Positions 1 through 59,190 of a DNA stretch of 64,000 nt are shown here, piece by piece (within the stretch, counting starts at the first letter, position 1; every line of letters begins with the position of its first letter). Both the position numbers and the translations under genes were made by a program. The DNA comes from Rariglobus sp. GTDB taxonomy: Bacteria; Verrucomicrobiota; Verrucomicrobiia; Opitutales; Opitutaceae. Under the pieces are notes generated by a model that was not told the DNA's origin, searched no databases, and worked only from the letters and a program-made list of their open reading frames with translations. The DNA lies in contig DATHXF010000083.1 in NCBI GenBank assembly GCA_035459785.1, positions 1 through 64,000 of the forward strand. Direction: 5' to 3'.

Positions 1-567
1 CAGAAAACGGCGCGCGCGCACGTCGTCGATCAGACGGCCATGTTCGTCCACTACATAGATCACGTTGAGCGTCTCGCGGTCGTAGCCGTTTTCACGGATA
101 AAATCCAACGCCTGCGCCACCGACCACTCCGGCCGCACCGCGATGAAATCGAGTGTCATCATGCGGCCGACGCTCTCGGCCGGATACGCCAGCAGATCCT
201 GCGCGACCTTGCGCTCCTCGGGTGAAAGCAACGACAGCATCTGCATCGCCACATCGAGCGGCAGGCTGTCGATGAACACCGTGCGGTCGTCGGGCGGGAG
301 CGCGTTGAGCAGTTCCGCCGCCTGCTGCTGGCTGAGCATGCGCAGGAGTTTTTTCTGCGCATGGACCGGCAGGTAGCCGAACGTCGCCGCCGCCAGATCG
401 CGGTTGCTGCAACGAAACAATGACGCGAGCGCCTCGACCGGCAGTTCGGCCAGCAGCGGCGCGAGGTCCGCCGGATGCCACGGTTCCAGATACTTTTTGA
501 GCGCGACCAGATCCTTGCGACCGATCAACGAAAGGATCGCGTCTTTTACCTCGGGTTGGGGGGACAT
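1..567 (-). CDS. mgtE: Magnesium transporter MgtE, N-terminal part (gene runs off the window start; 3' end missing)
   Basis: Manual reverse-strand translation from ATG at 565-567 gives MSPQPEVKDAILSLIGRKDLVALKKYLEPWHPADLAPLLAELPVEALASLF...LDFIAVRPEWSVAQALDFIREN, i.e. MgtE_N domain architecture. Not in the ORF track because it runs off the edge. Confidence 0.6.
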   Translation of the reverse strand, partial: MSPQPEVKDAILSLIGRKDLVALKKYLEPWHPADLAPLLAELPVEALASLFRCSNRDLAAATFGYLPVHAQKKLLRMLSQQQAAELLNALPPDDRTVFIDSLPLDVAMQMLSLLSPEERKVAQDLLAYPAESVGRMMTLDFIAVRPEWSVAQALDFIRENGYDRETLNVIYVVDEHGRLIDDVRARRFL

Positions 568-2692: not shown

Positions 2693-4624
2693 TTACGCCG
2701 CCTTGTCGTGGGTTTTCTCTTTGACGAGCAGCGCCAGCATGGAGTCGAGCAACCCCTGCCCGCCCTGCGAGCCGGTCACCGACACATCCGGCACGATGCG
2801 CACGCCGCGCTCGCCGACCGTCTGCATGAGCTGCATGACGGTGTAGCTTTGCGCGCCGAGCGACTCGACGCCCGCGCGGTAGGCTTCGGCCTTGGCGTTA
2901 CCGGTGGCGCGGATGGCATCGGCTTCACCCACCGCGCGCAGCTTGGTGGACTCGGCCTCACCCGAAGCTTTCTTGATTGCCGACTGCGCGTGCAGTTCGG
3001 CGATGTGCACGCCCTGGTCGGCTCCGACCATCTGCTGCTGGATGTCCGCCAGCGCGGTGGCGCGCACGAGTTCCTGACGCTGGCGCTGCGCGGCCTCCTG
3101 CGTTTCGTAGGTCTTCTTTTCCTCCTCGGCGATTTTACGGTCGGTCTGGGTTTTCATCAGCTCGGCCGGCGGCGTGATGTCGCCGATGAGCGTGTCGATC
3201 GCCTGCACGTCGTAGGCAGCGAGCGCCGTGCGGATGTGCTCGGCCGCCTCGACCTGGCGATCACTGCGCGCGTTGAGGAAATCCAGCACCGTGTGGTGTT
3301 GCGCCGAGTTGCGGAAATAATTGCCGACAATCGGCTGGAGCGCGTGATCGACGAGATTCTGCATAGAGCCGATGCGCGAGATGACCTTGGGGGCGTCGAG
3401 CGCGCCGACGTGGATGATCTGGGAAACATCGAGGTTGAAAGCGAAGCCGTCTTTCGAGCGGACGGTGATCGAGTTGAGCTTCGCGTCGTAGTGGTGCGCC
3501 TCGGTGCGGTTGGCCCAGTTGAGCACGATGTTCGTCGTGGGCACGAGCTCCACGCGCATGATACGGGTGTTTACAGGGTGCTTGCCGGGATTGAGCGGCG
3601 TGACCCACACGCCCTTGTGGCCGACGTTGACGAGATCGCCGTGTTTAAACTCCACGCCGCTCACGTCCTCGTGGGCGAGACCGACGAAGGAAATCACCAC
3701 GCCGACGCTGCCGATGGGAATGCTCAACATCGGCACCTGCTCGACCTGCACGAACCACGGGTTGAGGTTCCACGAACCCGAGAGCAACACCTGCTCTTGC
3801 AGGCCGCGACGGCCGCCGCTCTCAAGGAACGCCTGGGAGTTTTGGAAGTTATCGTGTCCGGCGATCACCTGGCCGGCGATCTCGCCGCCCTCGATGGGAC
3901 GTCCGTCCAGGGCGGTGACGATGCCGACCATGTCAGACTCCACCTGATAGACGCGCATGGCGTCAGGATTCATGCCGTAGTGCTCCGCGTTGTGCGCGGT
4001 CACGACTTGGAACAACGCAGGGTTGATTCGATACGCACCGGCGGTGAGCACGCACAACTGGCGGCCCTTCTCGCCGCCGCCCGTGAGGAACCGGCGCGCG
4101 TCCTGGAAGTTGTCGCACGCGACGACCCGTCCGAGCATGCGCTCGGAGGAAATCGGAGCGCCGGCGGCGGCGACCACGAGGGCGATTTCACTGGGAGGCA
4201 CCACGATCACCGGAGATTTCGCGATGGTGTATTGCCAGAAGCCATACCCGAAATACACGCCGGGCGGCAGGGTGTCGGCCTGGTAGCCGGCCTCGCCATT
4301 GAGCGCGATGATCTCGCCCGCCGGCAGATTGCGGGAGGCGAATTTTTTAATGACTACGCCCACCTGATCCTCGCGGATGATCACCATGCCCATGAGCAAC
4401 GGGGCGATCAACAGGATGAACACGCCGAGTCCGGCCTGTTCCATCCACGTTTCGGCGAGCACGAACGGCGTGACCAGCAAAACCACGGCGCAGGCACCGG
4501 CGACCAGCCGGGCGGTGAACCGCGCCTTGAGGGCGATACCCGCGAGCACAAGGCCCGCGCCGACGAAAAGCAGATGGGCGAGCACGCTCGCGACACCGGA
4601 CGAAGAAACCATCAATGAGTTCAT
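2693..4624 (-). CDS. Flotillin / SPFH (band-7) family protein, YqiK-like
   Basis: ORF 2693..4810 trimmed to ATG at 4622-4624 (MNSLMVSS..., GGAGA-like RBS upstream on the coding strand). N-terminal TM helices, SPFH domain, then flotillin-type Ala/Glu-rich coiled region (...TQTDRKIAEEEKKTYETQEAAQRQRQELVRATALADIQ...) and internal duplicated CDNFQDARRFLTGGG / GHDNFQNSQAFLESGG segments typical of YqiK. Confidence 0.8.
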   Translation of the reverse strand: MNSLMVSSSGVASVLAHLLFVGAGLVLAGIALKARFTARLVAGACAVVLLVTPFVLAETWMEQAGLGVFILLIAPLLMGMVIIREDQVGVVIKKFASRNLPAGEIIALNGEAGYQADTLPPGVYFGYGFWQYTIAKSPVIVVPPSEIALVVAAAGAPISSERMLGRVVACDNFQDARRFLTGGGEKGRQLCVLTAGAYRINPALFQVVTAHNAEHYGMNPDAMRVYQVESDMVGIVTALDGRPIEGGEIAGQVIAGHDNFQNSQAFLESGGRRGLQEQVLLSGSWNLNPWFVQVEQVPMLSIPIGSVGVVISFVGLAHEDVSGVEFKHGDLVNVGHKGVWVTPLNPGKHPVNTRIMRVELVPTTNIVLNWANRTEAHHYDAKLNSITVRSKDGFAFNLDVSQIIHVGALDAPKVISRIGSMQNLVDHALQPIVGNYFRNSAQHHTVLDFLNARSDRQVEAAEHIRTALAAYDVQAIDTLIGDITPPAELMKTQTDRKIAEEEKKTYETQEAAQRQRQELVRATALADIQQQMVGADQGVHIAELHAQSAIKKASGEAESTKLRAVGEADAIRATGNAKAEAYRAGVESLGAQSYTVMQLMQTVGERGVRIVPDVSVTGSQGGQGLLDSMLALLVKEKTHDKAA

Positions 4625-5100
4625 AGACTGTCTCCAAACATGCACCTGCCGCGACGCCGGTCTTCCCGGACGCCGCGAGCAGACGCGGTGAGATGAGGGA
4701 GACCGTGGAGACACCGCACTCGCGGGCCCTAGGGGATCACCCTTCCAATTGCCGACGAGGTTAGCTGACGGGCTTGGTGCTGGAAGGTCACCTTGGCCGT
4801 GGTTGCCCATGGCCGTGCGCCCCGTCCGCAGCGAGAGAGCGCTGCGGAGATTGGGTCCCCCGCGCCGGCACCGAGGAAGCGATGCCGGCTTAGGCTGAGA
4901 TACCGAAAAAGAACGACGCGATTATATCACCGTTTGGACACATCCGATTCGGAGCGATGGAGTCCCGTGCGCCAGAGTGAGATATAAATATTATCGTCCG
5001 ACCGCAGAGCCTGGCGAGCGCCACCCCGGCACCGCCGGGCGAGCAGTGTGTTTGAAAGTTTACCGTTAACTGATCAGGCAGTTGGTCCTTTCTGAGGCGA

Positions 5101-20662: not shown

Positions 20663-20735
20663 CGGGCACCCGTGGAGGACATTCCAAAACAGACCGCATC
20701 CCTCACGCGCGAAGCAAGCGCGCATCTGCGCTGAT

Positions 20736-22100: not shown

Positions 22101-22195
22101 GAGATTTCCAGGCCCGGTAAAACGGAAAGAGGGCGGGGCTTTCGCCCCGCCCGTTTCACGTTTTCACGCAGGTTGATTCCGCCGGTTTCTTTCGC

Positions 22196-25459: not shown

Positions 25460-28400
25460 ATGCCTCTCCCGCGTCCGCCTACTCAGGATCGCCGATCCGG
25501 CTTTGCGTTGCTCATCACGATCACACTGCTGGCCTTTTTGGTGCTTCTGCTCGTTTCCCTCGCCGCACTCACGCGCGTGGAAACCCAGGTTGCGTCCAAC
25601 AATCAGCAACTGGCGCAGGCCAGGCAAAACGCCCTCATGGGGCTCAACATCGCCCTGGGCCGCCTGCAATCGCTGGCCGGCCCCGACCGGCGCATCACCG
25701 CCACCGCCGACTTGATCGCCGGCGTCCACGACACCAAGCGCAGATGGACCGGCGTCTGGAACACCACCGCAGCCACCCCTGTTCCGGAGTGGCTCGTATC
25801 GACCGCCGTTCCCGCCTCGGCCCAAGGCAGCGCCAGCGTCGCCACGACGATTCCTTCGACGGGCACGGTGGGGCTCGTGGGTAGTAATTCGGTGGATACA
25901 AGCGTCCCTGGCAATGCCGTCACGGTTGAAACCCAGCCGATCACCTCCGCCGCCGTCCCCGGCATCTCCGGGACACAGACTGTCGGAAACTTCGCCTACT
26001 GGGTCGGCGACGAAGGCGTGAAGGCCAAGGTGAATCTGACCGACCCCGGCACCGCACCCACGGCCACCGTTGCCGAGAAAATCTACCGCTTCGTCAACGC
26101 ACACCGTTTCGGCATCGAAGGCGTGGACTCCGGCGCCGCCGGAACTCCGCTCTCCACCGGCTACCCGGCCAACGCGGCCGACCTGCCCAAGGTTCTCGAC
26201 CTCAAACAGCTCTCCCTGCTCGGCACCGGCGGACAAGCCGCGCTCACCACCGCCGCAAAAAACCGTTTCCACGACCTCACGGCTGCGTCCTTCTCCGTCC
26301 TCGCCGACGTCGCCAAAGGCGGCCTCAAAAAAGACCTCACCGCCTGGATCGCCGATCCCGCCGCACCCTCCAACCCGGTTTCGTCAAACGCCTCCGACGA
26401 CTACATAACGCCCGGCGATCCGGCCGACACCGGCAAATACGGCCTGCCCAAGTGGGCGCTGATTCGCAGTTACGCGACCACGTATAACACCGGCTCCGCC
26501 CTCGCCCCGCGCCCCCAGACCGCCACGCAGCAAGGCGTCTCGCCCGTGATCACCTACGCTCGCATGGGCTATAACCTGACCCGGCCCAACGCGGCTTCCG
26601 GTTACTATCGCATCAACATCATGCCGGTCGTCGCGCTGTGGAATCCCTACAACGTGCCTCTCCAAAAAAGCACTGGCGACGCCGACACCTACGAATTCTG
26701 CGTCAAATACAAGCCCACCGTCTTCGTCCGCCCCGGTGGCATCGTCACCACGGACGGCGTCCGGCTCAGAGTGGTTTTCACCTCGACCGTCACCCCCCAG
26801 AATGACCCGGACTCGTTCCACCTCGGCACCGTCCAGTTGCAAAGCGGTGCGGCGGGTCCGCTCGGCCCGGCGGGCACCTTCGCCTCTTATGCCGCGGGAA
26901 ACACGGCCCAGATATCCACATCCGCGACCGCCACGCCCGTATTCTGGCGTTTCAAGCTGAAGCTTTCCAAGGATCTCGCTCCCGGCGAAAGCCGCCTGTT
27001 CACCATCAGCGATGCTTCCGATGAAAGCCAGTATGTTGCCGGCCAATCCGAACTCAGTGACGCCGTGCTCGGCTCGAACAACGGCGTTTATCTGCCGAGC
27101 AACACCCCGCTGAACGCGAGCCAGATGGCCGAATCTCCTCCGGCCAGCGCCGCCCGCATTTTTTGGAACACCGAACCCAACATTGGCGGCAGCGATTTCT
27201 CGATTTATCCGGACGCGGCCATGATGGATTTCCGTCTCACCAAGCCGGTGCCGGCGGGCGAAACGAATCTCGCCGCCATCGACGCGTTCCTCGTCAACCC
27301 CGACAACACCTACCAGGCCATTCTGGGCAACGCCTTCATCTGGCGCGCGGACACCAATCCGCAGATGGGCCTGTCCGAGATGTTCCCGCCGCAGAACAAC
27401 GGCCGTCTGCTGACCTACCAGCGGATCGAACTGCTCATGTCCTCGAACTACGATCGTTTCGTCAGTGGTTCAGGTTCGCCGGGCACGCCCCGCTGGCTCG
27501 CCCAGCTCAACCCCCAGGCGGCCGTCACGCTGCGAAAATCCAGCGCGCCCACCAGCGTCAATACTCCGGCCGACGAAGCCAAGATCACGCCCTCCTACGA
27601 GAACCAGTTTTACATCAAGCGGGAAGCGGCCTCCCCCGCCGACTACCCCTACATTCTCATCCCCGACGCCAACGGCACCAACGTCTCGGCCGGCACCCAG
27701 GTCGCCACCCCTGGCACCCCGCAAAACGCCGTGCTGCGCGAGTTTCAACCCGACGCCATCACGCTGCTCTCCCTCGGCCAGTTGCAGCATGCCAACGCCT
27801 CGTTGATAAACATCAACCCGGCGCACCCCATCGGCAACTCACTGGCCAACCTCCATGTTCCGCGCACCGCCACGCAATCGGGCCTCCTTTCTCAGGACGC
27901 CTACAACACCTACCACCCGAACAACACCTATCCCGGCTTTCCCGGCAGCAGCCAGTTCCAGCACATCTACGACCTGTCCTACCTTCTCAACAAGGCGCTG
28001 TGGGATGGATATTTTTTCTCCACCGTGCCACCCACCCTGGCCGCCGCCGATATCCTCGCCCCCGGTTACCGGCTGCCCAACGCCCGGCACCAGTTCCATT
28101 GGAACAGCGGCTCCGCCAACGCCGCGGAACTTGCAGAATTGAAAGCCACCGCCACCGCAGCCGCGCACTTGGTCGTCAACGGCGGCTTCAACGTCAACTC
28201 CACCTCGGAACAGGCGTGGCGCGCCCTTCTCTACAGCCACAACGGCGTGACCACCCCGGCCGACACTTCCAAAAATCCCTATTCACGCTTCACCGCGGCC
28301 GCCGATTCCACGCAGACGTGGCTGGCGGCGCCCAACGATACCTGGCTCGGCTACCGCGTTCTCTCCAATCCCCAGCTTGACGCACTGGCCAAAGCCATCG

Positions 28401-28984
28401 TCACGGAAGTCCGCACCCGCGGCCCCTTCCTCTCCCTCGCGGATTTCATCAACCGCCGGTTGATCGGCGATGACACCGGTCTCAAGGGGCCCTTGCAGGC
28501 GGCGATCGATGCCACCACCGCCATCAATGGAGCCGCGCCCTTCATCGACAGCGACACACGCATGACCGTTTACCCGCCGAGCATCACCACCGATAACGAA
28601 CAAAAATCCATCTACAAAGGCGCCGCCACTACTTCGCTTCCCTCCACTGCGGCCTCGGCGTCGCGCGCCATCTTCGCTCCTGGTTACCTCACCCAAGCCG
28701 ATCTCCTCAACGCGCTCGGACCGTCGCTGACCGCCCGCTCCGATACATTCCGCATCCGTGCCTACGGCGATGTGGTCAACCCGGCCACCGGTTCCACGAC
28801 GCCCGATTCCCGCGCTTGGTGCGAAGCCATTGTCCAGCGCCTCCCCGACTACGTGGACACCTCCCTTCCCCCTGAAACCGATTTGGCCGCCGTCCCGGCC
28901 TCGGCCGCAAAAACCACCAACCAGGCCTTCGGACGCCGCTTCAAAATCGTCTCCTTCCGCTGGCTCTCTTCCCATGATATTTAA
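25460..28984 (+). CDS. Giant (1175 aa) protein with GspK/PilX-like minor-pseudopilin N-terminus; Verru_Chthon cassette protein A-like family, copy 1
   Basis: ORF 25421..28984 trimmed to ATG 25460. N-terminus MPLPRPPTQDRRSGFALLITITLLAFLVLLLVSLAALTRVETQVASNNQQLAQARQNALMGLNIALGRLQ (basic stretch, hydrophobic helix without Glu+5, then Q/A/N-rich helix as in GspK). Conserved GNFAYWVGDEGVKAKVNL block and conserved C-terminus ...SRAWCEAIVQRLPDYVD...FGRRFKIVSFRWLSSHDI shared with copies at 49355..53218 and 63311..64000. Confidence 0.7.
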   Translation: MPLPRPPTQDRRSGFALLITITLLAFLVLLLVSLAALTRVETQVASNNQQLAQARQNALMGLNIALGRLQSLAGPDRRITATADLIAGVHDTKRRWTGVWNTTAATPVPEWLVSTAVPASAQGSASVATTIPSTGTVGLVGSNSVDTSVPGNAVTVETQPITSAAVPGISGTQTVGNFAYWVGDEGVKAKVNLTDPGTAPTATVAEKIYRFVNAHRFGIEGVDSGAAGTPLSTGYPANAADLPKVLDLKQLSLLGTGGQAALTTAAKNRFHDLTAASFSVLADVAKGGLKKDLTAWIADPAAPSNPVSSNASDDYITPGDPADTGKYGLPKWALIRSYATTYNTGSALAPRPQTATQQGVSPVITYARMGYNLTRPNAASGYYRINIMPVVALWNPYNVPLQKSTGDADTYEFCVKYKPTVFVRPGGIVTTDGVRLRVVFTSTVTPQNDPDSFHLGTVQLQSGAAGPLGPAGTFASYAAGNTAQISTSATATPVFWRFKLKLSKDLAPGESRLFTISDASDESQYVAGQSELSDAVLGSNNGVYLPSNTPLNASQMAESPPASAARIFWNTEPNIGGSDFSIYPDAAMMDFRLTKPVPAGETNLAAIDAFLVNPDNTYQAILGNAFIWRADTNPQMGLSEMFPPQNNGRLLTYQRIELLMSSNYDRFVSGSGSPGTPRWLAQLNPQAAVTLRKSSAPTSVNTPADEAKITPSYENQFYIKREAASPADYPYILIPDANGTNVSAGTQVATPGTPQNAVLREFQPDAITLLSLGQLQHANASLININPAHPIGNSLANLHVPRTATQSGLLSQDAYNTYHPNNTYPGFPGSSQFQHIYDLSYLLNKALWDGYFFSTVPPTLAAADILAPGYRLPNARHQFHWNSGSANAAELAELKATATAAAHLVVNGGFNVNSTSEQAWRALLYSHNGVTTPADTSKNPYSRFTAAADSTQTWLAAPNDTWLGYRVLSNPQLDALAKAIVTEVRTRGPFLSLADFINRRLIGDDTGLKGPLQAAIDATTAINGAAPFIDSDTRMTVYPPSITTDNEQKSIYKGAATTSLPSTAASASRAIFAPGYLTQADLLNALGPSLTARSDTFRIRAYGDVVNPATGSTTPDSRAWCEAIVQRLPDYVDTSLPPETDLAAVPASAAKTTNQAFGRRFKIVSFRWLSSHDI

Positions 28985-29759
28985 TCGCATCCCCTCGTGG
29001 CCGGTCATCGCCTTTGGCCTGCTCGCCTGCGCGCTTCCCGCGCACGCCGTCCAATTCCGTCTGCTCGGCTGGGCCGCGCAGGATCTCAACCTTCAGTTCG
29101 ACGCCAACCGCAAGGCCAACGAGACCTACATCTCCACCGACACCTTTTCACCCGTCTACGAGTTCAAAGGCGAAGGCCCGATCATCTTCTACAAACGCGT
29201 CGAGCACGAGGGAGTGGTCCGGAAACAGATCGCCTGCACCGTCGTCATCCCTCCCGGCATGGAGCAGGGCCTTTTGCTGCTCATCCCCGGCGACGACTCC
29301 CTTGCCGTGGATCGCAAGGTGCTGCCCGACAGCCAGGGATTCGTCTCCGAAACCGCGCCGTTGATTTACGACTACGTCTGGTTCGACGACTCCCTGGCCG
29401 CGCGTCCCGCCGGCACGATCGAGTTTCGCAACCTGTCCCGCGTGCCCATCGCATTTCAGATCGAGCAGCACCAACTCGTGCTCGCTCCGCAGGGCAAAAC
29501 CCAGGTCCCGCTCACCCCCGGCGCGAAACGCATGGCTTTCCGCGCCGCCGCCCAGATCGACGGAAAATGGAAAGTCTTCACGAGCAATCCGCTCCCGACG
29601 CGCGGCCCCGAACGCATGATCGTCCTCCTGCGCGACACCGTCGCCGCCGGAAACGGCACCTCCTCCGGCCATGCCCCCGGCATCACGATGATCCCGCTCT
29701 ACGACTGGCCCGCGCCGCCCAAGTCGGCCGCCGCCGACTTGGTATCCGCCAACCCATGA
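28974..29759 (+). CDS. Secreted ~260-aa partner protein of giant copy 1 (start overlaps the giant gene stop by 11 nt)
   Basis: ATG at 28974 inside ...tcccATGATATTTAAtcgc... where TAA (28982-84) ends the giant gene; product MIFNRIPSWPVIAFGLLACALPAHA signal peptide. Similar size and position to 48630..49379. Confidence 0.55.
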   Translation: MIFNRIPSWPVIAFGLLACALPAHAVQFRLLGWAAQDLNLQFDANRKANETYISTDTFSPVYEFKGEGPIIFYKRVEHEGVVRKQIACTVVIPPGMEQGLLLLIPGDDSLAVDRKVLPDSQGFVSETAPLIYDYVWFDDSLAARPAGTIEFRNLSRVPIAFQIEQHQLVLAPQGKTQVPLTPGAKRMAFRAAAQIDGKWKVFTSNPLPTRGPERMIVLLRDTVAAGNGTSSGHAPGITMIPLYDWPAPPKSAAADLVSANP

Positions 29760-48629: not shown

Positions 48630-49379
48630 TTATTGGGATGCGTCGGGTTGCTTGGGCGGCATGGGCACGTCGTTGACGACCACGGTGCGCAAATTCCTGA
48701 ACTCTTTTGAATCGGGGAAAACGAAGAGGAGCATGCGGGCGCTCGCGGGCTTGGGCAGGCCGGTCCGCATCTTCAGCTCCCAATCGCCGCCCGGCGGACG
48801 GCAGGCGATTTTTATCGGAAGAAACTCGCGCCCGGCTCCGATCACAAAATCGGCGCGCTGGTTTATCTCCACCACCTCCTGAACATCCGCCAACTTCACG
48901 CCCAGCGCGGCCGGGCAAAAATTGTAGAGTCGCACACTGTTCTCCGACATATCCTCGCCCCAATATTCGATGGGCGTGAAGCGGTATGGAAACGAACGCT
49001 GGCTTTTGTCGTGGGTGACCAAAAAGAGGACGCCGCGCCAGGAGGCGGGAAACTCAAGCTTGGCCAGAGGGCGGCTCTCCGTTTTCCCTTCGACCACCAC
49101 GCTGCGAAACAAGGTGATCACGCCAGGGCCGCGATACTCGATGGTGTCGGACAAGCCGCCCGGCACGATCGTCAGATCGTGGACCACCTTGCCGCTGGCA
49201 AGTTTGGCGATCATGTCGGGTTCGGTCGTCTCGTTTCCGCGGATGTAGGCAAACCTCACCATCACGGGCGGCGGTTGCTTGGGCTCCGCCGGCAACGTGG
49301 TTTGGGCGCGAAGCGGCCCGGACCACCCCAAGGCGCCCAGCAAAAACAGGGAGATCAAATATCGGAGGAGCTGAGCCAT
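48630..49379 (-). CDS. Secreted ~250-aa partner protein of giant copy 2 (start lies 25 nt inside the 3' end of the giant gene)
   Basis: ATG at 49377-49379; MAQLLRYLISLFLLGALGWSGPLRAQ signal peptide. Same size, position and strand relationship as 28974..29759. Confidence 0.5.
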   Translation of the reverse strand: MAQLLRYLISLFLLGALGWSGPLRAQTTLPAEPKQPPPVMVRFAYIRGNETTEPDMIAKLASGKVVHDLTIVPGGLSDTIEYRGPGVITLFRSVVVEGKTESRPLAKLEFPASWRGVLFLVTHDKSQRSFPYRFTPIEYWGEDMSENSVRLYNFCPAALGVKLADVQEVVEINQRADFVIGAGREFLPIKIACRPPGGDWELKMRTGLPKPASARMLLFVFPDSKEFRNLRTVVVNDVPMPPKQPDASQ

Positions 49380-52300
49380 TTGAAGGAGATGATTTTAAAG
49401 CGCCGGCCAAACGTTTGGTTGACGGGATGAGCCGCAGACGGGAGCTCCCAGGCGTCTTGCGTGGAATCCACATACTCGGGCAGGCGCTGGACAACGGCCT
49501 CGCACCAAGCGCGGGATTGCACGTAGTCGGGATCGGTGGAAACACCGAGCGGGTTGACCGTGTCTCCATAGACACGGATGACAAACGTGTCGGAGCGGGC
49601 GGAGAGCACGGGGCCGAGCGGTTGCAACAGGTCGGCTTGCGTGATGAATCCAGGCGCACCCGTGGTGACCAATGTCGTGGTCGTGGTTGCGGATCCGTCT
49701 GAATTGGCACCCGGCATTTTTGATGCACCGACACCCAGCGCAGGAATGGTTTCAACCAGCGTCGTGCCGAACCCTCCATTAGGCTGTTTGACGGACGTGG
49801 ATTCTTGCACCGTCTGCAACGCGCGCGCCAGTGTTCCCATGGTGCGTTCGTCAAAGCCCGGGCTATAGCCATCCGCTACGTTGACCAGCGAACGGTTCAC
49901 AAAGTCGGCGAGCGAAAGAAAGGGGCCGCGGTTTTTAACCTCGGTCACGATGGCCGTGGCGAGGGAGTCGATCTGATCCCGGGTCAGAAAGCGGTAACCG
50001 CGGTAGGCGTTGTAGTCATGCGAAGCATCGGAGGACGCCGTCATCACAAAGGAATCATCGGCCGGATAAAGGAGACGCGGGACCGGTGCTTCATCCGTGC
50101 GGCTGGTTCCTCCCACCGGAATGTTGAGAGTCGCGGCCAGCACGGCGCGCCACGCCTCCACCGAGGTGGAGTTGATGTTGAAGGCGCCGGTAGTCAGCAG
50201 ACCGGCTGCGGCGCGATCAGTGTTGTGAAGGTCGGCCGGGCTGAACGAATTGGCGGCCGCGACCAGACGCGAATTACGGGTATTAAGCGATCCGTCCGCG
50301 TTTGTGGCCGCAGCGCTCGCGGAAATTCCCGAGAAGAAATACGCATCCCAGAGGCTGCGATTAAGAAGGTAGGAGTGATCAAAGAAAACCGCCGCCGTCG
50401 TGCCGGTGATTTTATTGGAGCCGGCATTGATCGAGCCGGCCGGGGCCGCCAGCGGAACACGCATGTCGGCCCACGAGTTTCCGACCGGATATGCCGGCGC
50501 AAAGTTGCTCGCGAGGCGGTAGGGATTGGTCGCTGATTCCGGCAGGGTGCGGTAGAGGCTGGCATGCTGAAGCGCGCCCAAGGACAGGAGCGAACTGCCG
50601 GATTGAGGCACATCGAACAGGACGACAGGACGGCTGCCGGCGGAATAGTTGTAGCCGAAATCCGCATTGCCGCTGATGACATCGGTGGACGACGAGAAGT
50701 TCGCGTCGTCCGCGTTGATCGTGTAGTTGGTTGTGCCGGAAGCCGTCCCCGTCCGGTTGATGTCGGGACGCACCGCTGCGTAAGAAGGATTGTTTTTCTG
50801 GTAGCCATCTCCGCCGTTGCCCTGGATTTCGTAGGCGGAGCGATACGACTGGTAGGCACGCGGATTGTAGCCCGAAAGCCAGCGGACGGGCGGCATGAGA
50901 ACCGTGGTGGGAAGCGGGGACTGATCCGTCACCTGCAAGGCAACTTTCCAGGAAAAACACATTTGGGGAAGCACGGGGGTCGGAATGTTGGGTCGGACCT
51001 CCTGATTTCCCTTTGACGTGGGCGTCGGCCATGTCGTGACCTGCGCGTTGAAACTGGAGTTGTTACCCGACACCTGCTGGACGAGTGCTCCGGTGGAGCT
51101 GCCCATGCGCAGGAATACATAGTCGATGGGCGGAACCCCAGGAAGCGAGGGAGTGCCCGGAGCCGGGACCGGAGCCTGGTCCCAGGCAGGCATCGTGGTG
51201 ATGCCCGGTTCGGAAGCCGCGCCCGTGGTGCCGTGACCGGTTCCGCCTGTGAAGAAAATCAACCGGTAGGTATTGGGTGCAGAAATCACAGGCAGTGTGA
51301 ACGAGCCCGAGGTCACCAATACGCCGCGGCCATTGGAAGGCCCCGCGCCCCAGCCGCGCACGAGTGCCGGAACCGGGCTGGGGATGCTCGTGGGCGTGGC
51401 GGCAAGGTCGGTCGCCATCGTATAAACGTAAGCGGTGCCGGGCGCCATCGCTCCGCTCTCCAGAGTGAAGGTGAAGTTCACCGGTGCCGCGGTGCCGTTA
51501 TTGCCAGCCGAGTCATAGAAATACGGACTGGAAACCTGCGCGTTCGCATTGATGGCCGGATCGGTGTAGCTCACGGCCGCGGTGTTCACCACGCGGGCAT
51601 AGAAGATCGATTTCTCCAGGGAAATCGTGACGTGATAGGTCTGCGACCGGAGCGTCACGCCATAGGGATTCCACAAGGTGATGGCCGGCACATGGCGCAT
51701 CTCGAGCTGGTAGCTTCCTCCACCCAGGGCGACCACCTTGGTGTCTATGAAAAGCTGGTAGTTCACCATCACGGGAGCGACGCCATGTTGTTGCGCGGTC
51801 CCGGCGGAATCGTCGGTTTGCGCGACGGGATTCATGGTCGCACTGGAGCCGGTTCCGCTGAACGCGGCCGCAGGATTTTCGGGCAGTTGATAATAGGAAC
51901 GCAGCATCTGCCAAAGCGGGCCCTTGCCGTCGTAACCATTGTTGGTCGCCATGGGCGTCGATATCCATGCGGCGGCACTGCCATCGATGACCGCGGGGTT
52001 GGCGCTTGGCGGGGTCTTGGTGGCCAAAGACAAATCCCAGATCGGATCGGACCACAGGATGTTGCCGGCCCGGCTCAGATAAGTGGCGTTGGAGCCGTAG
52101 CCGGATGCGACGAGCGACGTGTTGTCACTGGAAAGCGTGGAGGCCAGTGCGGCCGTGAGGTCTTTTTTAATACCGCCGCGCAACGAATCGCTGACCACAC
52201 CGAGGCTGTAGGTGGTGACATCGTGGAACCGGAGTTTTTGAGCGTTCTGAAGCGTGGTCTGATTGGCGACGGTGCTGCCGAGCAAGGTGACTTGTTCGCT

Positions 52301-53218
52301 CGAGAGCACGGAGGGCACGGTGGCGGCGTTGACCGGGAAGGCGGTTTTGAGATTGGTCCCGTTGGCGGCAAAGCTGGTGTTGTCGTCGTCGATCATCTCG
52401 GTGGCTGCACGCTGAGCCAGCTGATAGCCGGAGCGCGGGTTTACCGAGGTGTAGGGATTGTTAAGATTGATGCGGGCCTTGATGCCTTCGTCTCCCACCC
52501 AATAGGCGTAGCGCCCGATGGCCGGGCTGCCGCTCACGCCGGGCACATTGCTGCTGGTAATGTTCACCAGCGGGGCGACGACATATTGGTCCGCGCCTGC
52601 GGTTGTGCCGACGGTCTTTGCCCCGACCAGCAGTTGGTAGGCGGTCGTGCCAACGGTCAGCGGAGTGGTCGCGGTCGTCGCAGGGCTCAGCGCCAGCGAA
52701 CCGAGGCCGTCTGGTTTGTAAGTGATGGCACCGGCTCCGGAGGCGGGAGGGGTGGCCGTGATCTGCCCAAAGGTTGCGGCGCTGGTTGACGGGGTGAACG
52801 AGGCGCCTTCGTTGCCGCTCACCAGCCAGTTCAGCACCGCGGGCGTCTGCCTGAACGCCGCAGCGGAAGCCGCCGTGTTTCCGATGGCGGCCGTCCATTG
52901 TCTGGCACCGTTGACTGCAATGGGCAGGGTGTTGCCGGAAGCGCCGTTGCCGAAATCAGCGCGAACCGTGGTGCGTTGGTCCGGCCCGGTCGCTTTTTGC
53001 AATTGGGCGAGGGCGATATTGAGCGCCATCAAAGCGTTCTGCCGGGCCTGATCCAGCCTCTGGCTGTTCCCGGCCACCTGTGTTTCCACCCGCGTGAGCG
53101 ACGCCAGACTTACCAACAACAGGACAAGAAACGCCAGCAACGTGACCGTGATCAGCAGTGCGAAGCCACGCCGGTCCCCTTTCAGGATACCTGTGGTGGA
53201 TGTGATCACGGTGTTCAT
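49355..53218 (-). CDS. Giant (1287 aa) GspK/PilX-like N-terminus protein; Verru_Chthon cassette protein A-like family, copy 2
   Basis: ORF 49355..53269 trimmed to ATG 53216-53218 (MNTVITSTTGILKGDRRGFALLITVTLLAFLVLLLVSLASLTRVETQVAGNSQRLDQARQNALMALNIALAQLQ); GRYAYWVGDEGIKARINL; C-terminus ...SRAWCEAVVQRLPEYVD...FGRRFKIISFKWLSSSDI. Confidence 0.7.
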   Translation of the reverse strand: MNTVITSTTGILKGDRRGFALLITVTLLAFLVLLLVSLASLTRVETQVAGNSQRLDQARQNALMALNIALAQLQKATGPDQRTTVRADFGNGASGNTLPIAVNGARQWTAAIGNTAASAAAFRQTPAVLNWLVSGNEGASFTPSTSAATFGQITATPPASGAGAITYKPDGLGSLALSPATTATTPLTVGTTAYQLLVGAKTVGTTAGADQYVVAPLVNITSSNVPGVSGSPAIGRYAYWVGDEGIKARINLNNPYTSVNPRSGYQLAQRAATEMIDDDNTSFAANGTNLKTAFPVNAATVPSVLSSEQVTLLGSTVANQTTLQNAQKLRFHDVTTYSLGVVSDSLRGGIKKDLTAALASTLSSDNTSLVASGYGSNATYLSRAGNILWSDPIWDLSLATKTPPSANPAVIDGSAAAWISTPMATNNGYDGKGPLWQMLRSYYQLPENPAAAFSGTGSSATMNPVAQTDDSAGTAQQHGVAPVMVNYQLFIDTKVVALGGGSYQLEMRHVPAITLWNPYGVTLRSQTYHVTISLEKSIFYARVVNTAAVSYTDPAINANAQVSSPYFYDSAGNNGTAAPVNFTFTLESGAMAPGTAYVYTMATDLAATPTSIPSPVPALVRGWGAGPSNGRGVLVTSGSFTLPVISAPNTYRLIFFTGGTGHGTTGAASEPGITTMPAWDQAPVPAPGTPSLPGVPPIDYVFLRMGSSTGALVQQVSGNNSSFNAQVTTWPTPTSKGNQEVRPNIPTPVLPQMCFSWKVALQVTDQSPLPTTVLMPPVRWLSGYNPRAYQSYRSAYEIQGNGGDGYQKNNPSYAAVRPDINRTGTASGTTNYTINADDANFSSSTDVISGNADFGYNYSAGSRPVVLFDVPQSGSSLLSLGALQHASLYRTLPESATNPYRLASNFAPAYPVGNSWADMRVPLAAPAGSINAGSNKITGTTAAVFFDHSYLLNRSLWDAYFFSGISASAAATNADGSLNTRNSRLVAAANSFSPADLHNTDRAAAGLLTTGAFNINSTSVEAWRAVLAATLNIPVGGTSRTDEAPVPRLLYPADDSFVMTASSDASHDYNAYRGYRFLTRDQIDSLATAIVTEVKNRGPFLSLADFVNRSLVNVADGYSPGFDERTMGTLARALQTVQESTSVKQPNGGFGTTLVETIPALGVGASKMPGANSDGSATTTTTLVTTGAPGFITQADLLQPLGPVLSARSDTFVIRVYGDTVNPLGVSTDPDYVQSRAWCEAVVQRLPEYVDSTQDAWELPSAAHPVNQTFGRRFKIISFKWLSSSDI

Positions 53219-53501: not shown

Positions 53502-54671
53502 TCAGGTTGAGATGCGGCGGCGATAGGCCGCGAAACCTAGAATCATCATGCCAGCGAAAGCGGCATAGGTGGAGGGCTCGGGGACGGCTGCGAACGTTAC
53601 GAAACCGCTGGCATCAAGCGAAGCCGTGTAGCCCGCCAACGAGATCGAATTCAATTGAGCAAGCGTGAGTGCCGAGATGGACGAACCGAACTTCAACGTA
53701 TCAGTGCCGATGTCGAAATTTAGCAACGTCAGCGTGCCGCTCCATGCAATGGAATGACTGTCGGCAAATACCAGCGCGGAGGTCAACGAACCCATGTCGA
53801 TGGTTGAGTTGGCCGAGAGCGTGAGGGTGCCCAGAGTCTCGTTAAAGCCGCCCGTGGCGAAAGTGCCGCCCGCCATGACCAGATTACTGGTGTTGGCGAT
53901 GCGATCTGCCGCGCCCAGAGCCAGCGTTCCATCCGAAACCGTCGTCGTGCCCGTGTAGGTGTTGTTCCCGGAAAGCGTCCACAAGCCGGTTCCGCTCTTG
54001 GCCAGACTCAACGTATTGCCGGTTCCATTGGAGATGACCCCGCGCACTAGACTGGAAAAGGAGCTGTTATTGTTTGTCCCATCCAACGTAAGTGTAAGCC
54101 CCCCCGTGCCACTGACACCAGAAATGGCCGTTGTTGTGCCTGTATTAAAAGCGCTGGCGCTGAGGTTGGTGCTATTATTCGTCCACGTCTGGCTGGCAGA
54201 AAGCTGCATCGAACTAAGGCTCGATGCCGTAAGCAATCGCCCCGTGCCGCCGACTGCCATACCGCCTGCGCCAATCGTCAGCACAGGTGTAGAAGCCCCC
54301 GACAAAGTCACGGAACCTTCCTCAATCGTGATGCTATTCGCAGAAATGGAACCGGTGACCACTACCGCCGAGCTACCGGTCACGTCGGTGGAAGCAGAAA
54401 AAAACGCATCAGAGCCTCCAACATAAGTGGTGTTGGAGCCAGAACCGTCGGAATTAACGTTCCAACTGGCCGTTGATGCGTCCCAATTTCCAGGAGCGTT
54501 TGTAGAGGTGCTTCCTCCGATGTTTCCGTCATCGATATCCCAATAAAGCGAAGCTGCTTGAGCGGAAGGAATGGCAACCGCGCCGAACATGGCGGCGAAG
54601 GCAATCGCCACCAGCTTGGGGAACGGGCGGTTTGTTTGGTTGGAGGCGGAGATGAGGGTATGGGGTGTCAT
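53502..54671 (-). CDS. PEP-CTERM-anchored surface protein with beta-strand repeats
   Basis: 389 aa; signal peptide; C-terminus AAVPEPSTYAAFAGMMILGFAAYRRRIST (PEP-CTERM). Confidence 0.7.
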   Translation of the reverse strand: MTPHTLISASNQTNRPFPKLVAIAFAAMFGAVAIPSAQAASLYWDIDDGNIGGSTSTNAPGNWDASTASWNVNSDGSGSNTTYVGGSDAFFSASTDVTGSSAVVVTGSISANSITIEEGSVTLSGASTPVLTIGAGGMAVGGTGRLLTASSLSSMQLSASQTWTNNSTNLSASAFNTGTTTAISGVSGTGGLTLTLDGTNNNSSFSSLVRGVISNGTGNTLSLAKSGTGLWTLSGNNTYTGTTTVSDGTLALGAADRIANTSNLVMAGGTFATGGFNETLGTLTLSANSTIDMGSLTSALVFADSHSIAWSGTLTLLNFDIGTDTLKFGSSISALTLAQLNSISLAGYTASLDASGFVTFAAVPEPSTYAAFAGMMILGFAAYRRRIST

Positions 54672-54773: not shown

Positions 54774-55673
54774 CTACGAGGTATCGGCCCGGCGGATTGC
54801 CTCGAGCTCGGCCTGATTAAGAACGGCCTCCGAACTGGCTGCATCGGCCCAAATGCGGATATTATCAATCACGCCGTCGAACGGCCGGTCTCCGGCCGGC
54901 ATATTTCCAATGATCACGGGAACATCCGGCAAAACGGTCTTGAGCGCTCCCGCAGCTAGAGAGGCTTCCGTGACGACTTGAACCGGCCCGTTTACGGAGC
55001 CGGCGTAAAAAACGACATTTTTATATTCTCCCGCGCCGTCATACGTGATCGCAAAAAAGACCCACTGATCAGCCACACGAAAAACAGGGCTCGGACTAAG
55101 TGCAGACCCCCGATCAGTCGAGAGAACCAACCCCTTTCCGTCCGGACCGTCAAAGACCACCGACAGTCTCTGGCTGCTGATCAATCGGGCATAGTTGGAA
55201 GGGATTTGAACTCCATCCGACTTATACCAGCCCTGCACCGTAAATGACATTGCCCGGTCAAAGCTGGTTGCGCCCCCGCTGATGACGGCTTTGCCACCTT
55301 GGCCAGGCGTCTTACCCGACCCGCCCATTGCCAGGGAGACCGTATTATCAAATGCCCGATCCTTCGGTTTGTGCGATACCCCACCCCCCGGCGCCGTGCG
55401 CAAGTCAGCTTTTGCGCCATCGAATATCGTCATCAATGCAGGTGGATTCTTGGCTGCTGAATCCTTCACTACTTCGCCAGGGGCATCATTGAACCTCAGC
55501 TCAAGCACCAGTTCGCTTCTATGGGGAAGATCACTGGCCCGCCCCTCTGTTCCCGCCAAGCAAACCAACGCAAGCCATCCACCAACAAGCGGGCCGCATG
55601 CAGCTACAACCAAGCGAGGCACGGCAAAACCGCCAAACTTGGAAGCATAAGAAAGTATACAATCTTGGGGCAT
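54774..55673 (-). CDS. Secreted concanavalin/LamG-like domain protein
   Basis: ORF 54774..55730 trimmed to ATG 55671-73; TM/signal then beta-sandwich with C-terminal FDGVIDNIRIW (LamG-type D-x-[IV]-R-I-[WY] motif). Tentative. Confidence 0.45.
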   Translation of the reverse strand: MPQDCILSYASKFGGFAVPRLVVAACGPLVGGWLALVCLAGTEGRASDLPHRSELVLELRFNDAPGEVVKDSAAKNPPALMTIFDGAKADLRTAPGGGVSHKPKDRAFDNTVSLAMGGSGKTPGQGGKAVISGGATSFDRAMSFTVQGWYKSDGVQIPSNYARLISSQRLSVVFDGPDGKGLVLSTDRGSALSPSPVFRVADQWVFFAITYDGAGEYKNVVFYAGSVNGPVQVVTEASLAAGALKTVLPDVPVIIGNMPAGDRPFDGVIDNIRIWADAASSEAVLNQAELEAIRRADTS

Positions 55674-55743
55674 GGAATGAGGGGGGCGGCTCCTCGGGGA
55701 AGCAGCCCCCGAGCAGCGGAAATGTCTCATCCTGCCTGATAGA

Positions 55744-55930: not shown

Positions 55931-56932
55931 ATGCAAGTGAGCCAAAAAACAATCGCGAATGCCCTTAATGTATCGATCGTCACCGTTTCCCGAGCCCTTC
56001 GCAACCGACCCGACCTGGCGGAGGACACCAAGCATCGCATTCTGCAAAAAGCGCAGGAACTCGGTTACAAAAAAAACTCCGCGAAAGCCGCCGCAGCCAA
56101 GCCAGGCAAAGATACCCAAGTCCGGCGTGTGGGCATCCTGTTTTATGAGAACGAAGGCACCCCCCACATCGATATGCTCAAGTCCGAGGCCCTTCGGCTC
56201 ATTTTCCGCTCGATCCAAAAAGAATGCCAGCGCCTCGAAGTCGAAACCCTGATCGAAACACCCTCTACAGATCACTCCGTTACTCCGCTGATCCTCAAAA
56301 ATCGAGCCGTGGACGGCGTGTTCCTGCTCGGTCGCTACTCGGCCAAAACCGTTGAGATGATTGGCGATACTCCTGTTTTGGCAGTCAGCAGCTTCATTGA
56401 GTGCCCGAAACTGCCGCGCATTGTCGCCGACAATTTCCACGGCATGCGAAAAGCGACCGACCACCTTATCCAGCTAGGCCATAAAAAAATCCTTTTTATC
56501 GGGGACATTCAACAAGGCACACAGCTCTTTCGCGAGCGCTCGTATGGGTATATGGCAGCCATGCATGAACAAGGACTCGCGCCATCCGTCCACTTTTTCG
56601 AAAGCAGCAACAAACCGGTCCCTCTTGAGGAAATCTCCCGGCACACAGCCGTCGCCTGCAGCAATGACACGATTGCCTACCTCATCCAAAGAAAACTTCT
56701 CGCGGTCGGGAAGAAACTGCCTGAGGACTGCAGCTTGGTTTCGTTCGACAACCTCGCACCGCTGGATCACCCAAACCCGATCACCTCCTACGGACCCGAT
56801 TGGGAACTGATGGGGAAAATGGCCGCCGACCTACTTCTGTCCACACCACTCGATATCCGCGGAAAAAACGTCGTAGTAACAATCCCAGGCACGCTCTTCG
56901 TCCACAAATCCACCTGCCCCATTGCTGGGTGA
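55931..56932 (+). CDS. LacI-family transcriptional regulator
   Basis: 333 aa; MQVSQKTIANALNVSIVTVSRALRNRPDLAEDTKHRILQKAQELGY HTH plus sugar-binding domain. Confidence 0.8.
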   Translation: MQVSQKTIANALNVSIVTVSRALRNRPDLAEDTKHRILQKAQELGYKKNSAKAAAAKPGKDTQVRRVGILFYENEGTPHIDMLKSEALRLIFRSIQKECQRLEVETLIETPSTDHSVTPLILKNRAVDGVFLLGRYSAKTVEMIGDTPVLAVSSFIECPKLPRIVADNFHGMRKATDHLIQLGHKKILFIGDIQQGTQLFRERSYGYMAAMHEQGLAPSVHFFESSNKPVPLEEISRHTAVACSNDTIAYLIQRKLLAVGKKLPEDCSLVSFDNLAPLDHPNPITSYGPDWELMGKMAADLLLSTPLDIRGKNVVVTIPGTLFVHKSTCPIAG

Positions 56933-57342: not shown

Positions 57343-57418
<76 letters not shown>

Positions 57419-57502: not shown

Positions 57503-59059
57503 TCAGCGCTGCTTCGCGTAGATCATCTTGTCCGCAACCGACGCCCATAGCCGGTTGATGCCGTCGGAGCCTTCCTTCGTGTGGTGCACGCCGTCCTTGG
57601 CGAGCGCCGTCGCGTGGTTTTCACGGGTGTAGGTCCAGTAATCCGCATAGGGCATCTGCGTTTTCGGATCGCACGCGTAGGGAGCGTGCGTGCGCGCAAA
57701 CACATCCACGCCGGCCAGGTTCACCGCGAGGGTGTTGTAGAAGACGTTATATTTATTCGGCTCCAGCGTCTCCTTGTTCAGGTAGCCGTTGGAATACTCG
57801 ATGCGCACGGGCACCAAAAATATGCCGTGACTCTTACAGAGCTCCTGCGCCTCGGTGAGGCTCTGGATAAACTTCGGCCCCATCCAGAGGCCGCCGCCCA
57901 CCCCGATGTCATTGAAGCCGGTTTCGAGGCAAAGAATCGTTCCCGTCGGCACGGCGGTCCCGTTGGGCGCGGCCTGCACCGGCAGTGAGTTTTTCAATCG
58001 CGCGAGCGTGTTGGCGATCACCTCGCCGCCCTGCGAGGAATTCACGACCATCGGATAACGGTCAGGATGTTGCTGCCGCACCAAATCGGCAAACTTCACG
58101 CCCTGCCCGTCGGGCGACCCGCCGGAGATATCCTGCACGATCAGGCTGTCGCCGGCGAAGATCCAGTAGTCGTTACGAAAGCCGGCGGGCGCGGCGCGGA
58201 ACACGTCCAGACGGCACAATTGAAAGCTGCCGGAGTTCCGCACGCCGATCCACTTCGGTTTGTTGTTCGGAATGACAACCACACCGTCGAGATACTTGTT
58301 CGACCCGCTCGCGATCTCTTTCCACGTGCCGTCGCTACCGTCGGTCGAATCGTGGCTCTCGGTGATCACGTAGTCCTTCAGCGCGCGCCAGTTGATGTTG
58401 TAGGCATGACCCTTGCCCGAGTTGTCCGAGCGGAAATTCAACATCAGGTAGGCCGCATCGCCGATGGGTGTCGTGGTGTTGAGTTTGATCTTCACTTCGG
58501 TCGCACCCTCGATCCCGCAACTGGTGGCATCCGAACCGTCCACCAGGTCGGACAGTTTTCCGACTTTCGGCACCGAACTGCTCACAAGGGTCGCGCCCAG
58601 GCTGACGCACATGTTCCTGGCGATGCGCACCGGAAAATCCGCGCCCGCCACCGGCGTGATCGTGAAGCCCTGCACCGCGGGCGACTGCGCACTCACGCCA
58701 TGGGCGTAGGCTGCGGCCACCTTGAAATAATACGTGGTGCCGGGAGAAAGTTTTTTGATCGTCGAGGTGCGTTCGGTGACGTCGGCGACTCGGGTAAACG
58801 TGCCGTCCTTGGTCGCACTGGAATATACGGTGTAAACCTTCGCGTCATTGTTGGGCGCGCGATACCAGGCGAGCGTGATGCTGTCGGCGGAATTGGCTAC
58901 CATCGCCACGCCAAGCGGCACGGCGGGAACGGGCGGAGCCGACGGTGCGCCTGGTGTCGCGGATGCCGCCGGTGCCGGAGTTCCGGTCTGGGAAAACGCG
59001 GTGGCCGCAACCACACCGGCCAATAAAAACGCCGTCACTGCTTTGGTTCTTAAAATCAT
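57503..59059 (-). CDS. Secreted fibronectin-III-like + SGNH hydrolase fusion (esterase)
   Basis: ORF trimmed to ATG 59057-59059; signal peptide, Pro/Ala-rich linker, FN3-like (TYYFKV), then IFAGDSLIV (block I) and DGVHHTKEG (DxxH). Confidence 0.65.
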   Translation of the reverse strand: MILRTKAVTAFLLAGVVAATAFSQTGTPAPAASATPGAPSAPPVPAVPLGVAMVANSADSITLAWYRAPNNDAKVYTVYSSATKDGTFTRVADVTERTSTIKKLSPGTTYYFKVAAAYAHGVSAQSPAVQGFTITPVAGADFPVRIARNMCVSLGATLVSSSVPKVGKLSDLVDGSDATSCGIEGATEVKIKLNTTTPIGDAAYLMLNFRSDNSGKGHAYNINWRALKDYVITESHDSTDGSDGTWKEIASGSNKYLDGVVVIPNNKPKWIGVRNSGSFQLCRLDVFRAAPAGFRNDYWIFAGDSLIVQDISGGSPDGQGVKFADLVRQQHPDRYPMVVNSSQGGEVIANTLARLKNSLPVQAAPNGTAVPTGTILCLETGFNDIGVGGGLWMGPKFIQSLTEAQELCKSHGIFLVPVRIEYSNGYLNKETLEPNKYNVFYNTLAVNLAGVDVFARTHAPYACDPKTQMPYADYWTYTRENHATALAKDGVHHTKEGSDGINRLWASVADKMIYAKQR

Positions 59060-59190
59060 GAACGAGGGGTATCCTGCAGCGGGATTAAAATGCGCAGGGA
59101 ATGCGTGCATGAACATCCGGCCGCCCGTGCCGCGTCAACGAACGCACCGCTAAACTGTTGAGCGGCGGCAGCGGCGGGGTTGCCCACACC

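Follow-up and report, generated by a model that had tools for sequence, protein, structure and literature searches.

A 64,000-nucleotide (nt) stretch of Rariglobus sp. contig DATHXF010000083.1 (the window, to which all coordinates refer) encodes three giant paralogous proteins, copies A, B and C, which are derivatives of GspK/PilX-class pseudopilins. We think it likely that the giants are modular GspK or 'K-subunit' minor pseudopilins, each working with the secreted product of the next gene as a filament tip specific to its operon. Their paralogy, the GspK-like fold and N-terminus, the co-diverging partner, the setting in polysaccharide operons, the size of the family and the presence of a type II secretion system (T2SS) in a family-bearing genome are settled by the analyses described here. 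The features concerned are listed in Table 1.

The three open reading frames (ORFs) reported in a first-pass annotation of this DNA were all recovered, and its overall description proved accurate, with similarity among the copies far beyond chance. In BLASTP comparisons, copies A and B share 34% identity over residues 10-517 (E-value 2e-54) and 37% over residues 678-1174 (E-value 7e-70), with residues ~520-680 unalignable, while copies A and C are 59% identical across 229 aa (E-value 6e-65). The near-identical first 70 residues noted earlier correspond to ~85% identity among the three copies over a stretch that starts at the Gly-Phe site and ends near residue 70; the leader before the glycine is variable. 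Two further shared blocks, the internal AYWVGDEG[VI]K and the C-terminal SRAWCEA[IV]VQRLP...FGRRFKI[VI]SF[RK]WLS, are present as previously described. We extended the comparison to a family alignment of 78 sequences, in which the giants have an average identity of ~37%. Residues W181, D184, E185, K188, E1122, R1127, G1158, R1159, F1166, W1168 and L1169 (copy A numbering) are invariant, and G14, F15, A16, L17, L18, I19 and T20 are conserved in at least 90% of the sequences, as are most positions from the Gly-Phe site through the first helix. Column conservation is concentrated in residues 1-90, 270-300, 750-810, 840-1020 and 1080-1174, and the core at 420-750 is variable and rich in gaps. BLASTP and column conservation both bear out the proposal that the copies are paralogs, conserved at their ends and variable in the middle. 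An in-frame GTG at 25421 could also serve as the start of copy A; the ATG is preferred because an identical 1174-aa database protein (P0001) exists. Copy C was considered as an ortholog of a Rariglobus hedericola homolog (P0022), since both follow GH94 and GDSL genes, and this was rejected: the two are 47% identical, below the value for copies C and A, so that a mapping of paralogs to substrates is not established from the 229 residues. No upstream regulatory DNA motif shared by the three copies was found.

All copies carry a prepilin-type signal, composed of a short basic leader, a glycine at position -1 and a hydrophobic alpha1N segment. The sequences around the site (marked by a slash) are RRSG/FALLITITLLAFLVLLL in copy A, DRRG/FALLITVTLL... 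in copy B and RRQAG/FALLITITLL... in copy C, and cleavage by prepilin peptidase is predicted after Gly14. Position +5 is Ile19 instead of the usual Glu, and is conserved in at least 90% of the 78 sequences. The absence of Glu+5 in the mature protein is a hallmark of the K subunit, and Escherichia coli GspK likewise lacks it at the same site (G/VALLIV). The GspK/PilX-class N-terminus recognised in the first-pass annotation is thus confirmed in its basic leader, near-invariant Gly-1/Phe+1, isoleucine at +5 and long alpha1 helix.

An AlphaFold2 model of copy A, computed on the family alignment, has a mean predicted local distance difference test score (pLDDT) of 87.2 and a predicted template modelling score (pTM) of 0.89. 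It begins with a 59-residue helix at residues 15-73, followed by strands at 78-82, 97-101, 136-140, 154-163 and 173-184. In this model, the three-dimensional fold of GspK, a pilin fold plus a helical domain, is present as a scaffold of ~220-230 residues, and the other ~700 residues are confidently folded and mostly beta. The AlphaFold prediction suggested earlier, an N-terminal pilin helix with a large folded body, was borne out accordingly, and the modelled polypeptide combines a pilin moiety with an extra folded module as modular pilins do. The scaffold would comprise about residues 1-200 and 896-1174 with the beta module between them, as judged from secondary structure and conservation. Because the N- and C-terminal parts are both conserved, the module is probably inserted and not appended. 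By eye, the W181 block of copy A resembles WQLRDAQHCFNLN of E. coli GspK, and three short motifs of the latter (W-x4-D-x5-NLN; INLN followed by a helix; the terminal strands) are mirrored in conserved blocks of the family. A Foldseek search of the copy A model against PDB gave no significant match, the best hit being 3ci0_K with an E-value of 0.21. This is a caveat, and a probable outcome given that the large insertion splits the matching parts.

Both complete copies are followed immediately 3' by an overlapping gene for a secreted protein of ~250-260 aa, which was absent from the first-pass annotation and was found in this analysis. Partners A and B are weakly similar to each other (18% identity, E-value 8e-4), and partner B matches a partner-family hidden Markov model (HMM), iterated from partner A and related loci, with an E-value of 3.7e-56. 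A database protein 100% identical to the window's partner comes from a Rariglobus sp. metagenome-assembled genome (MAG; Opitutaceae). We then considered 71 loci from the genome scan and contig look-ups that have a callable ORF directly downstream of the giant. This ORF encodes 225-280 aa in nearly all of them, with a signal peptide, and starts between -82 and +69 nt (mostly -24 to +20) from the stop codon of the giant. A recognisable partner homolog was detected by the iterated HMM in 64 of the 71 loci and is the next same-strand gene in 56; several of the apparent exceptions are gene miscalls. Pairwise identities of giants and partners are strongly correlated (Pearson 0.86, a value reached by none of 999 Mantel permutations), which indicates that both genes duplicate and diverge as one unit. 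The partner evolves faster, with a mean identity of 22% against 37% for the giant. Its structural model (pLDDT 83.9) has two beta-sandwich domains behind the signal peptide, and its structural matches are generic tandem beta-sandwiches, including the PepT2 extracellular domain, pneumolysin domain 4 and the AlgF C-domain. A PapD-like chaperone and a PilY1-like propeller were ruled out by fold comparison. The predicted fold would suit a protein- or carbohydrate-binding module and is not diagnostic of either, and the partner presumably binds the giant. A second pair of long and short genes in one related locus (L001; 1126 aa and 243 aa) proved unrelated to the giant-partner unit.

Carbohydrate-utilisation clusters run continuously through ~60 kb of the window. 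The enzymes encoded are glycoside hydrolases (GH) and related proteins of families GH116, GH30, GH16 or GH16-like (three), GH94 and GH36, a heparinase-like protein, and GDSL and SASA esterases. They are accompanied by two beta-helix/CBM4_9 proteins, LamG and PATR/PEP-CTERM proteins, four LacI regulators, an AraC-like regulator and two major facilitator superfamily (MFS) transporters. No TonB-dependent receptor, SusC/D-type gene or ABC sugar importer was found in positions 1-64000. Copy A has a GH16-like gene upstream and an MFS gene after partner A. Copy B has LamG and PATR genes upstream, and partner B is followed by two beta-helix/CBM genes, two esterase genes and an MFS gene. Copy C comes after GH94 and GDSL genes, downstream of a divergent LacI gene. 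The GH16-like gene directly upstream of copy A (24328-25383, +) encodes a 351-aa secreted protein with no Pfam match, in which EMDLIE fits the GH16 ExDxxE motif; in related loci, a GH16_XgeA-type gene lies directly upstream of the giant (L084) and GH16 genes lie two and three genes upstream (L003).

The family extends well beyond the window. A word-indexed search returned more than 1085 relatives, named 'hypothetical protein' or occasionally 'Tfp pilus assembly protein PilX', none of them with a Pfam domain. A profile search, run exhaustively over 1.84 billion cluster representatives, returned 5303 clusters (50% identity) at E-values up to 1e-3 and 3372 at E-values up to 1e-30. Among species-representative genomes, at least 561 stretches encode relatives of the giant. 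The family is covered by no Pfam or NCBIfam model, and our literature search found no paper describing the giant-partner family and none that relevantly links GspK with Verrucomicrobia. From the genome scan we kept 76 distinct loci (~80 with contig look-ups). All 76 are Verrucomicrobiota records (Opitutaceae, Rariglobus, Akkermansiaceae, Roseibacillus, Thalassobacterium and Verrucomicrobiaceae), and single MAGs contribute at least 6-10 paralogs among the best 80. When all genes of the loci were clustered by BLAST, only two proved near-universal, the giant in 81 loci and the partner in 59; next came PATR/PEP-CTERM proteins in 23 loci, usually upstream of the giant on its strand, and LacI regulators in 15. 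The remaining neighbours vary and include GH1, GH16, GH30, GH36, GH43, GH94, GH95, heparinase-like, sulfatase-like and esterase genes with LacI, AraC or NarL regulators, a diversity expected of an accessory unit common to many polysaccharide operons. The multiplication of paralogs within glycan-degradation operons, previously noticed in the window, therefore holds across ~80 related loci.

PATR-repeat proteins with PEP-CTERM-type C-termini are encoded in the window upstream of copy B and at 15245-16528 (-), as well as in related loci such as L025, L040, L061 and L065. The PATR cluster lies one to three genes upstream of the giant on the same strand in 14 related loci, and is thus recurrent and not universal. 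A LamG/ConA-like gene sometimes stands between the PATR gene and the giant, as at 54774..55730 (-) in the window. In a subset of loci, the PATR and LamG genes and the giant-partner unit may form an extended module of four genes.

The first-pass annotation had raised the possibility that the giants correspond to TIGR02600, 'Verru_Chthon cassette protein A', in which case they would be ordinary members of a named family and nothing new. The two are alike in size (~1100-1300 aa against a model of 1296 positions), phylum and type of N-terminus, and two R. hedericola homologs among the word-indexed relatives bear this name in UniRef. The cut-off of the model is 332.3 bits, however, and the window copies score 21-34 bits, on the N-terminal helix only. 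Across the family, scores are 17-34 bits and cover profile positions 1-59..79 alone in every matching protein; matches were obtained with all three window copies, two of four close homologs (P0022 and P0101) and five of seven distant members, the other four giving none. The model description is of a four-gene cassette in which B, C and D carry prepilin-type N-termini. Such genes do not accompany the giants, which have a non-pilin partner instead: a six-frame motif scan of the window upheld the earlier remark that no B, C or D pilins flank the giants, and a cassette with small pilins was likewise rejected for most related loci. No mention of the cassette was found in our literature search. Cassette protein A and the giants are alike as very large (~1300 aa) Verrucomicrobial proteins with the same pilin-like helix in their first ~60 residues; past the helix there is no similarity, and the giants have a conserved partner gene of their own. 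We rejected membership on both criteria, score and cassette, and consider it highly improbable.

Machinery that could assemble such a pseudopilin, for which the first-pass annotation had proposed a search, has its genes in at least one Opitutaceae genome that carries the family. In locus L084 (MAG GCA_041662485.1, contig JBAZSJ010000008.1), a gspD-gspE-gspF cluster at 18618-23555 (-) encodes a secretin that has the N0 domain of GspD, a GspE ATPase sharing 45.5% identity with its E. coli counterpart, and the platform protein GspF. It lies 5-10 kb downstream of the giant-partner unit on the opposite strand, with GH20 and small genes between, a proximity that is probably coincidental because it was seen at one locus only. 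This GspE is 72-91% identical to proteins of Opitutus terrae, Termitidicoccus, Horticoccus, Nibricoccus and many Opitutaceae MAGs, which indicates that the lineage has a conserved T2SS-type machine. PulG-like pseudopilins of ~230-260 aa with a GFTLVELL N-terminus occur near some of the units and belong to a large pseudopilin expansion of the Planctomycetes-Verrucomicrobia-Chlamydiae (PVC) bacteria; one of them (L082, 14162-14854, +), with a faint DUF1559/SBP_bac_10 match, directly follows the partner, two genes downstream of the giant. These proteins might be filament subunits used with giant tips.

For a filament-tip role of the giants we propose the following sequence of events. The operon's LacI-type regulator would induce the giant-partner unit along with the catabolic genes. 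The giant would be inserted in the inner membrane and cut after Gly14 by prepilin peptidase, and would then prime and cap a type II secretion-type pseudopilus (or a type IV filament) built by the genome's single GspD/E/F machine. This would expose the variable module at the end of the filament, and the partner would bind to it as a chaperone or a co-tip subunit. There the module would recognise the operon's polysaccharide and tether the polymer beside secreted or PEP-CTERM-anchored enzymes, different operons supplying different, exchangeable tips. That the core is variable, diverges in step with the partner and is encoded in substrate-specific operons points to recognition of the operon's polysaccharide, and we infer that the module binds glycan, in capture or tethering. 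Tip pilins with dedicated non-pilin partners are known from CofB-CofJ, TcpB-TcpF and the minor pilins that work with PilY1. Type 4 filaments are primed by the HIJK tip complex, whose bulky cap is the K subunit, and in Streptococcus sanguinis the modular minor pilin PilC, which carries a lectin module, binds glycans at the pilus tip (PMC9934059). A PulG-like pseudopilin in an alginate operon of Opitutales is strongly induced on alginate and has 67 paralogs, with the T2SS encoded elsewhere in the genome (PMC13274419), and in Planctomycetes gold-labelled dextran binds pili-like fibres (PMC5394234).

The giant and its partner could instead serve as a secretion-specificity adaptor, capping a T2SS pseudopilus, recognising the operon's exo-enzymes and pushing them through the secretin, with no glycan binding; every operon would then supply a cargo selector of its own. 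The fold and N-terminus are equally compatible with such a role, many enzymes with signal peptides are encoded in the operons, and a T2SS is present in the lineage. Tip pseudopilins of the T2SS have been reported to contact substrates. Export of the alginate lyases of the pseudopilin-carrying operon by the T2SS has also been suggested (PMC13274419). Yet the adjoining enzymes vary widely in family and number while the variable core co-diverges with a single partner, and it would not be the simplest reading to have a single selector deal with many unrelated folded cargos in each operon. We therefore regard an adaptor as unlikely.

Several results weigh against a filament-tip pseudopilin. The NCBIfam GspK model NF037980 (cut-off 130 bits) gives 17-22 bits for the window copies and 17-27 bits family-wide, within its first ~66 positions only. 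The full-length giants match no Pfam family, T2SSK_1st (PF21687) and T2SSK (PF03934) included; the T2SSK match anticipated in the first-pass annotation is also missing from constructs with the insertion deleted in silico, whereas E. coli GspK, as positive control, scores 108.7 and 49.2 bits in these models. An hhalign comparison of the family with the single E. coli GspK sequence aligned 21 N-terminal residues at 3.5% probability, and nothing relevant emerged when PDB sequences were searched with the family profile (hmmsearch). Membership in GspK beyond the first ~60 residues thus has no support from sequence models. Since the control passes where the insertion-deleted constructs fail, the relationship is structural and N-terminal, and undetectable by current sequence models. 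The inserted module matches no carbohydrate-binding module (CBM) or lectin family in Pfam, and its structural matches are of generic beta-sandwich likeness only. The giant genes stand outside any gspH-I-J-K operon, no other prepilin-like N-terminus occurs in the six frames of the window, and of 79 loci only 8 have a canonical PulG-like prepilin with Glu+5 within 8 kb. Finally, the T2SS genes come from a related family-bearing genome, one other than the window's own.

Part of this evidence would also fit a protein that never enters a filament, in which the N-terminal anchor stays uncleaved and the giant is a bitopic inner-membrane/periplasmic protein acting with its partner and an MFS transporter in oligosaccharide handling or sensing, the GspK-like scaffold being a relic. 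The giant genes do stand alone, without H/I/J-type pilins or assembly genes; MFS proteins are the sole transporters in the window's operons; and sequence models detect the N-terminal helix only. But the stretch RR-G-F-A-L-L-I-T-I-T-L-L-A-F-L is near-invariant despite the ~37% average identity, down to the exact places of Gly-1 and Phe+1, a pattern typical of pilin alpha1N and unneeded in a generic anchor. The entire GspK scaffold is conserved, C-terminal strands included, and MFS genes are near the giant-partner unit in few loci only. Such a membrane protein seems to us quite unlikely, if less so than membership in the TIGR02600 family.

If the giants do sit at filament tips, a further step by analogy with DNA uptake by competence pili would be a system for glycan uptake. 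One T2SS or type 4 filament machine would use dozens of operon-encoded giant K-type tips, each fishing with its partner for a specific polysaccharide. Filament retraction might pull the polymer to or through the secretin and so into the periplasm, where the partner would be a glycan-binding ratchet. We consider this extension speculative and rather improbable.

Table 1. Giant pseudopilin genes, their partner genes, the segments of copy A and the adjoining PATR gene in the window
Feature	Position	Strand	Remarks
Copy A, giant GspK-class modular pseudopilin	25460..28984	+	1174 aa; coordinates include the stop codon
Copy A residues 1-73: basic leader (1-13), predicted prepilin-peptidase site G14-F15, hydrophobic alpha1N, amphipathic alpha1C	25460..25678	+	Conservation; model helix 15-73
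Copy A residues ~74-200: first beta-strands of pilin-like body, ending in W-x2-D-E-x2-K...N-L block	25679..26059	+	Model strands; boundary placed from secondary structure
Copy A residues ~201-895: ~700-residue, mostly beta region, apparently inserted in GspK scaffold	26060..28144	+	
Copy A variable core, residues ~420-750	26717-27709	+	
Copy A residues ~896-1174: conserved helical part (GGFNVNSTS..AWRALL; RGPFLSLADFVNR) and C-terminal beta-strands (SDTFRIRAYGD; RAWCEAIVQR; FGRRFKIVSFRWL)	28145..28981	+	
Partner A, 261-aa Sec-exported tandem beta-sandwich protein	28974..29759	+	11-nt overlap with the end of copy A
Partner B, 249-aa secreted protein	48630..49379	-	25-nt overlap with the end of copy B
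Copy B, giant GspK-class modular pseudopilin	49355..53218	-	1287 aa; paralogy by BLASTP, sub-threshold N-terminal NCBIfam match
PATR-repeat protein with PEP-CTERM-like C-terminus	53502..54671	-	Pfam PATR; VPEPSTY...RRR C-terminus; directly upstream of copy B
Copy C, third paralog, first 229 residues	63311..>64000	+	Cut at the window end; 59% identical to copy A

The window also holds features apart from the giant-partner units. A cyclic di-AMP riboswitch of the ydaO/yuaA type at 4735-4906 (-), with an Rfam score of 58.3 bits against a gathering threshold of 38, lies directly upstream of and partly overlaps the ORF at 2693..4810 (-), which encodes a Band_7/SPFH membrane protein of ~640 aa; the true start of this gene is probably downstream of the riboswitch. 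A tRNA gene at 57346-57418 (-) (Rfam RF00005, 73 bits) is found between an fn3/GDSL-like gene (57503..59116, -) and a LacI gene (55931..56932, +). Two secreted or membrane proteins without a Pfam family are encoded within clusters of carbohydrate-active enzymes at 8982-11360 (-; 792 aa) and 20736-22100 (-; 454 aa), the former with homologs in two related loci.

Compared with GspK/XcpX of the HIJK tip complex (PDB 3CI0 and 5VTM), the giants are 3.5-4 times longer by virtue of the ~700-residue, apparently inserted beta region. They also fail the NF037980, PF03934 and PF21687 models, are not encoded with gspH/I/J, and have many paralogs per genome, a non-pilin secreted partner and a catabolic-operon setting. 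In the modular pilins of S. sanguinis, PilB with a von Willebrand factor A (vWA) module and PilC with a lectin module, the modules are C-terminal and of recognisable families, whereas the module of the giants is apparently inside a K-type scaffold and belongs to no known family, and the giants are encoded in catabolic operons of a diderm host and not in a pil locus. ComZ of Thermus, the CofB-CofJ and TcpB-TcpF pairs of type IVb pili and the minor pilins that work with PilY1 in type IVa pili are likewise large tip pilins with a dedicated non-pilin partner. Their structural likeness to the giants is weak and generic, PilY1-type partners are beta-propellers where the partner here is a tandem beta-sandwich, and their function is DNA uptake or host adhesion. 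The PulG-like pseudopilins of PVC bacteria (N_methyl plus DUF1559/SBP_bac_10) resemble the giants in having been multiplied, to dozens per genome, and in being scattered among polysaccharide operons at a distance from the T2SS genes; they are induced by substrate (PMC13274419). They differ in being G-type proteins of ~230-260 aa with Glu+5, in contrast to the K-type giants of more than 1000 aa that lack Glu+5 and have a partner. The giant-partner system is not a new kind of machine. What is new is a giant, apparently insertion-type modular K pseudopilin with a partner, massively expanded in polysaccharide operons of Verrucomicrobiota.

Verrucomicrobiota and related PVC phyla are major degraders of algal and plant glycans and capture and import polysaccharides without SusC/D-type systems. 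A large unannotated family such as this one could explain how polysaccharides are handled without Sus-like systems. If glycan uptake by filament tips were true, it would be a hitherto unrecognised route for capturing glycans and taking them up, functionally equivalent to the Sus paradigm of Bacteroidota. A family model built from the present alignment could replace thousands of 'hypothetical protein' labels. The giants would also add an architecture to the modular pilins, with a module apparently inside the K scaffold and a partner alongside. If they are exchangeable filament tips, they would directly link the type II secretion/type IV filament machinery with polysaccharide recognition, an idea that can be tested in a cultured host, Rariglobus hedericola.

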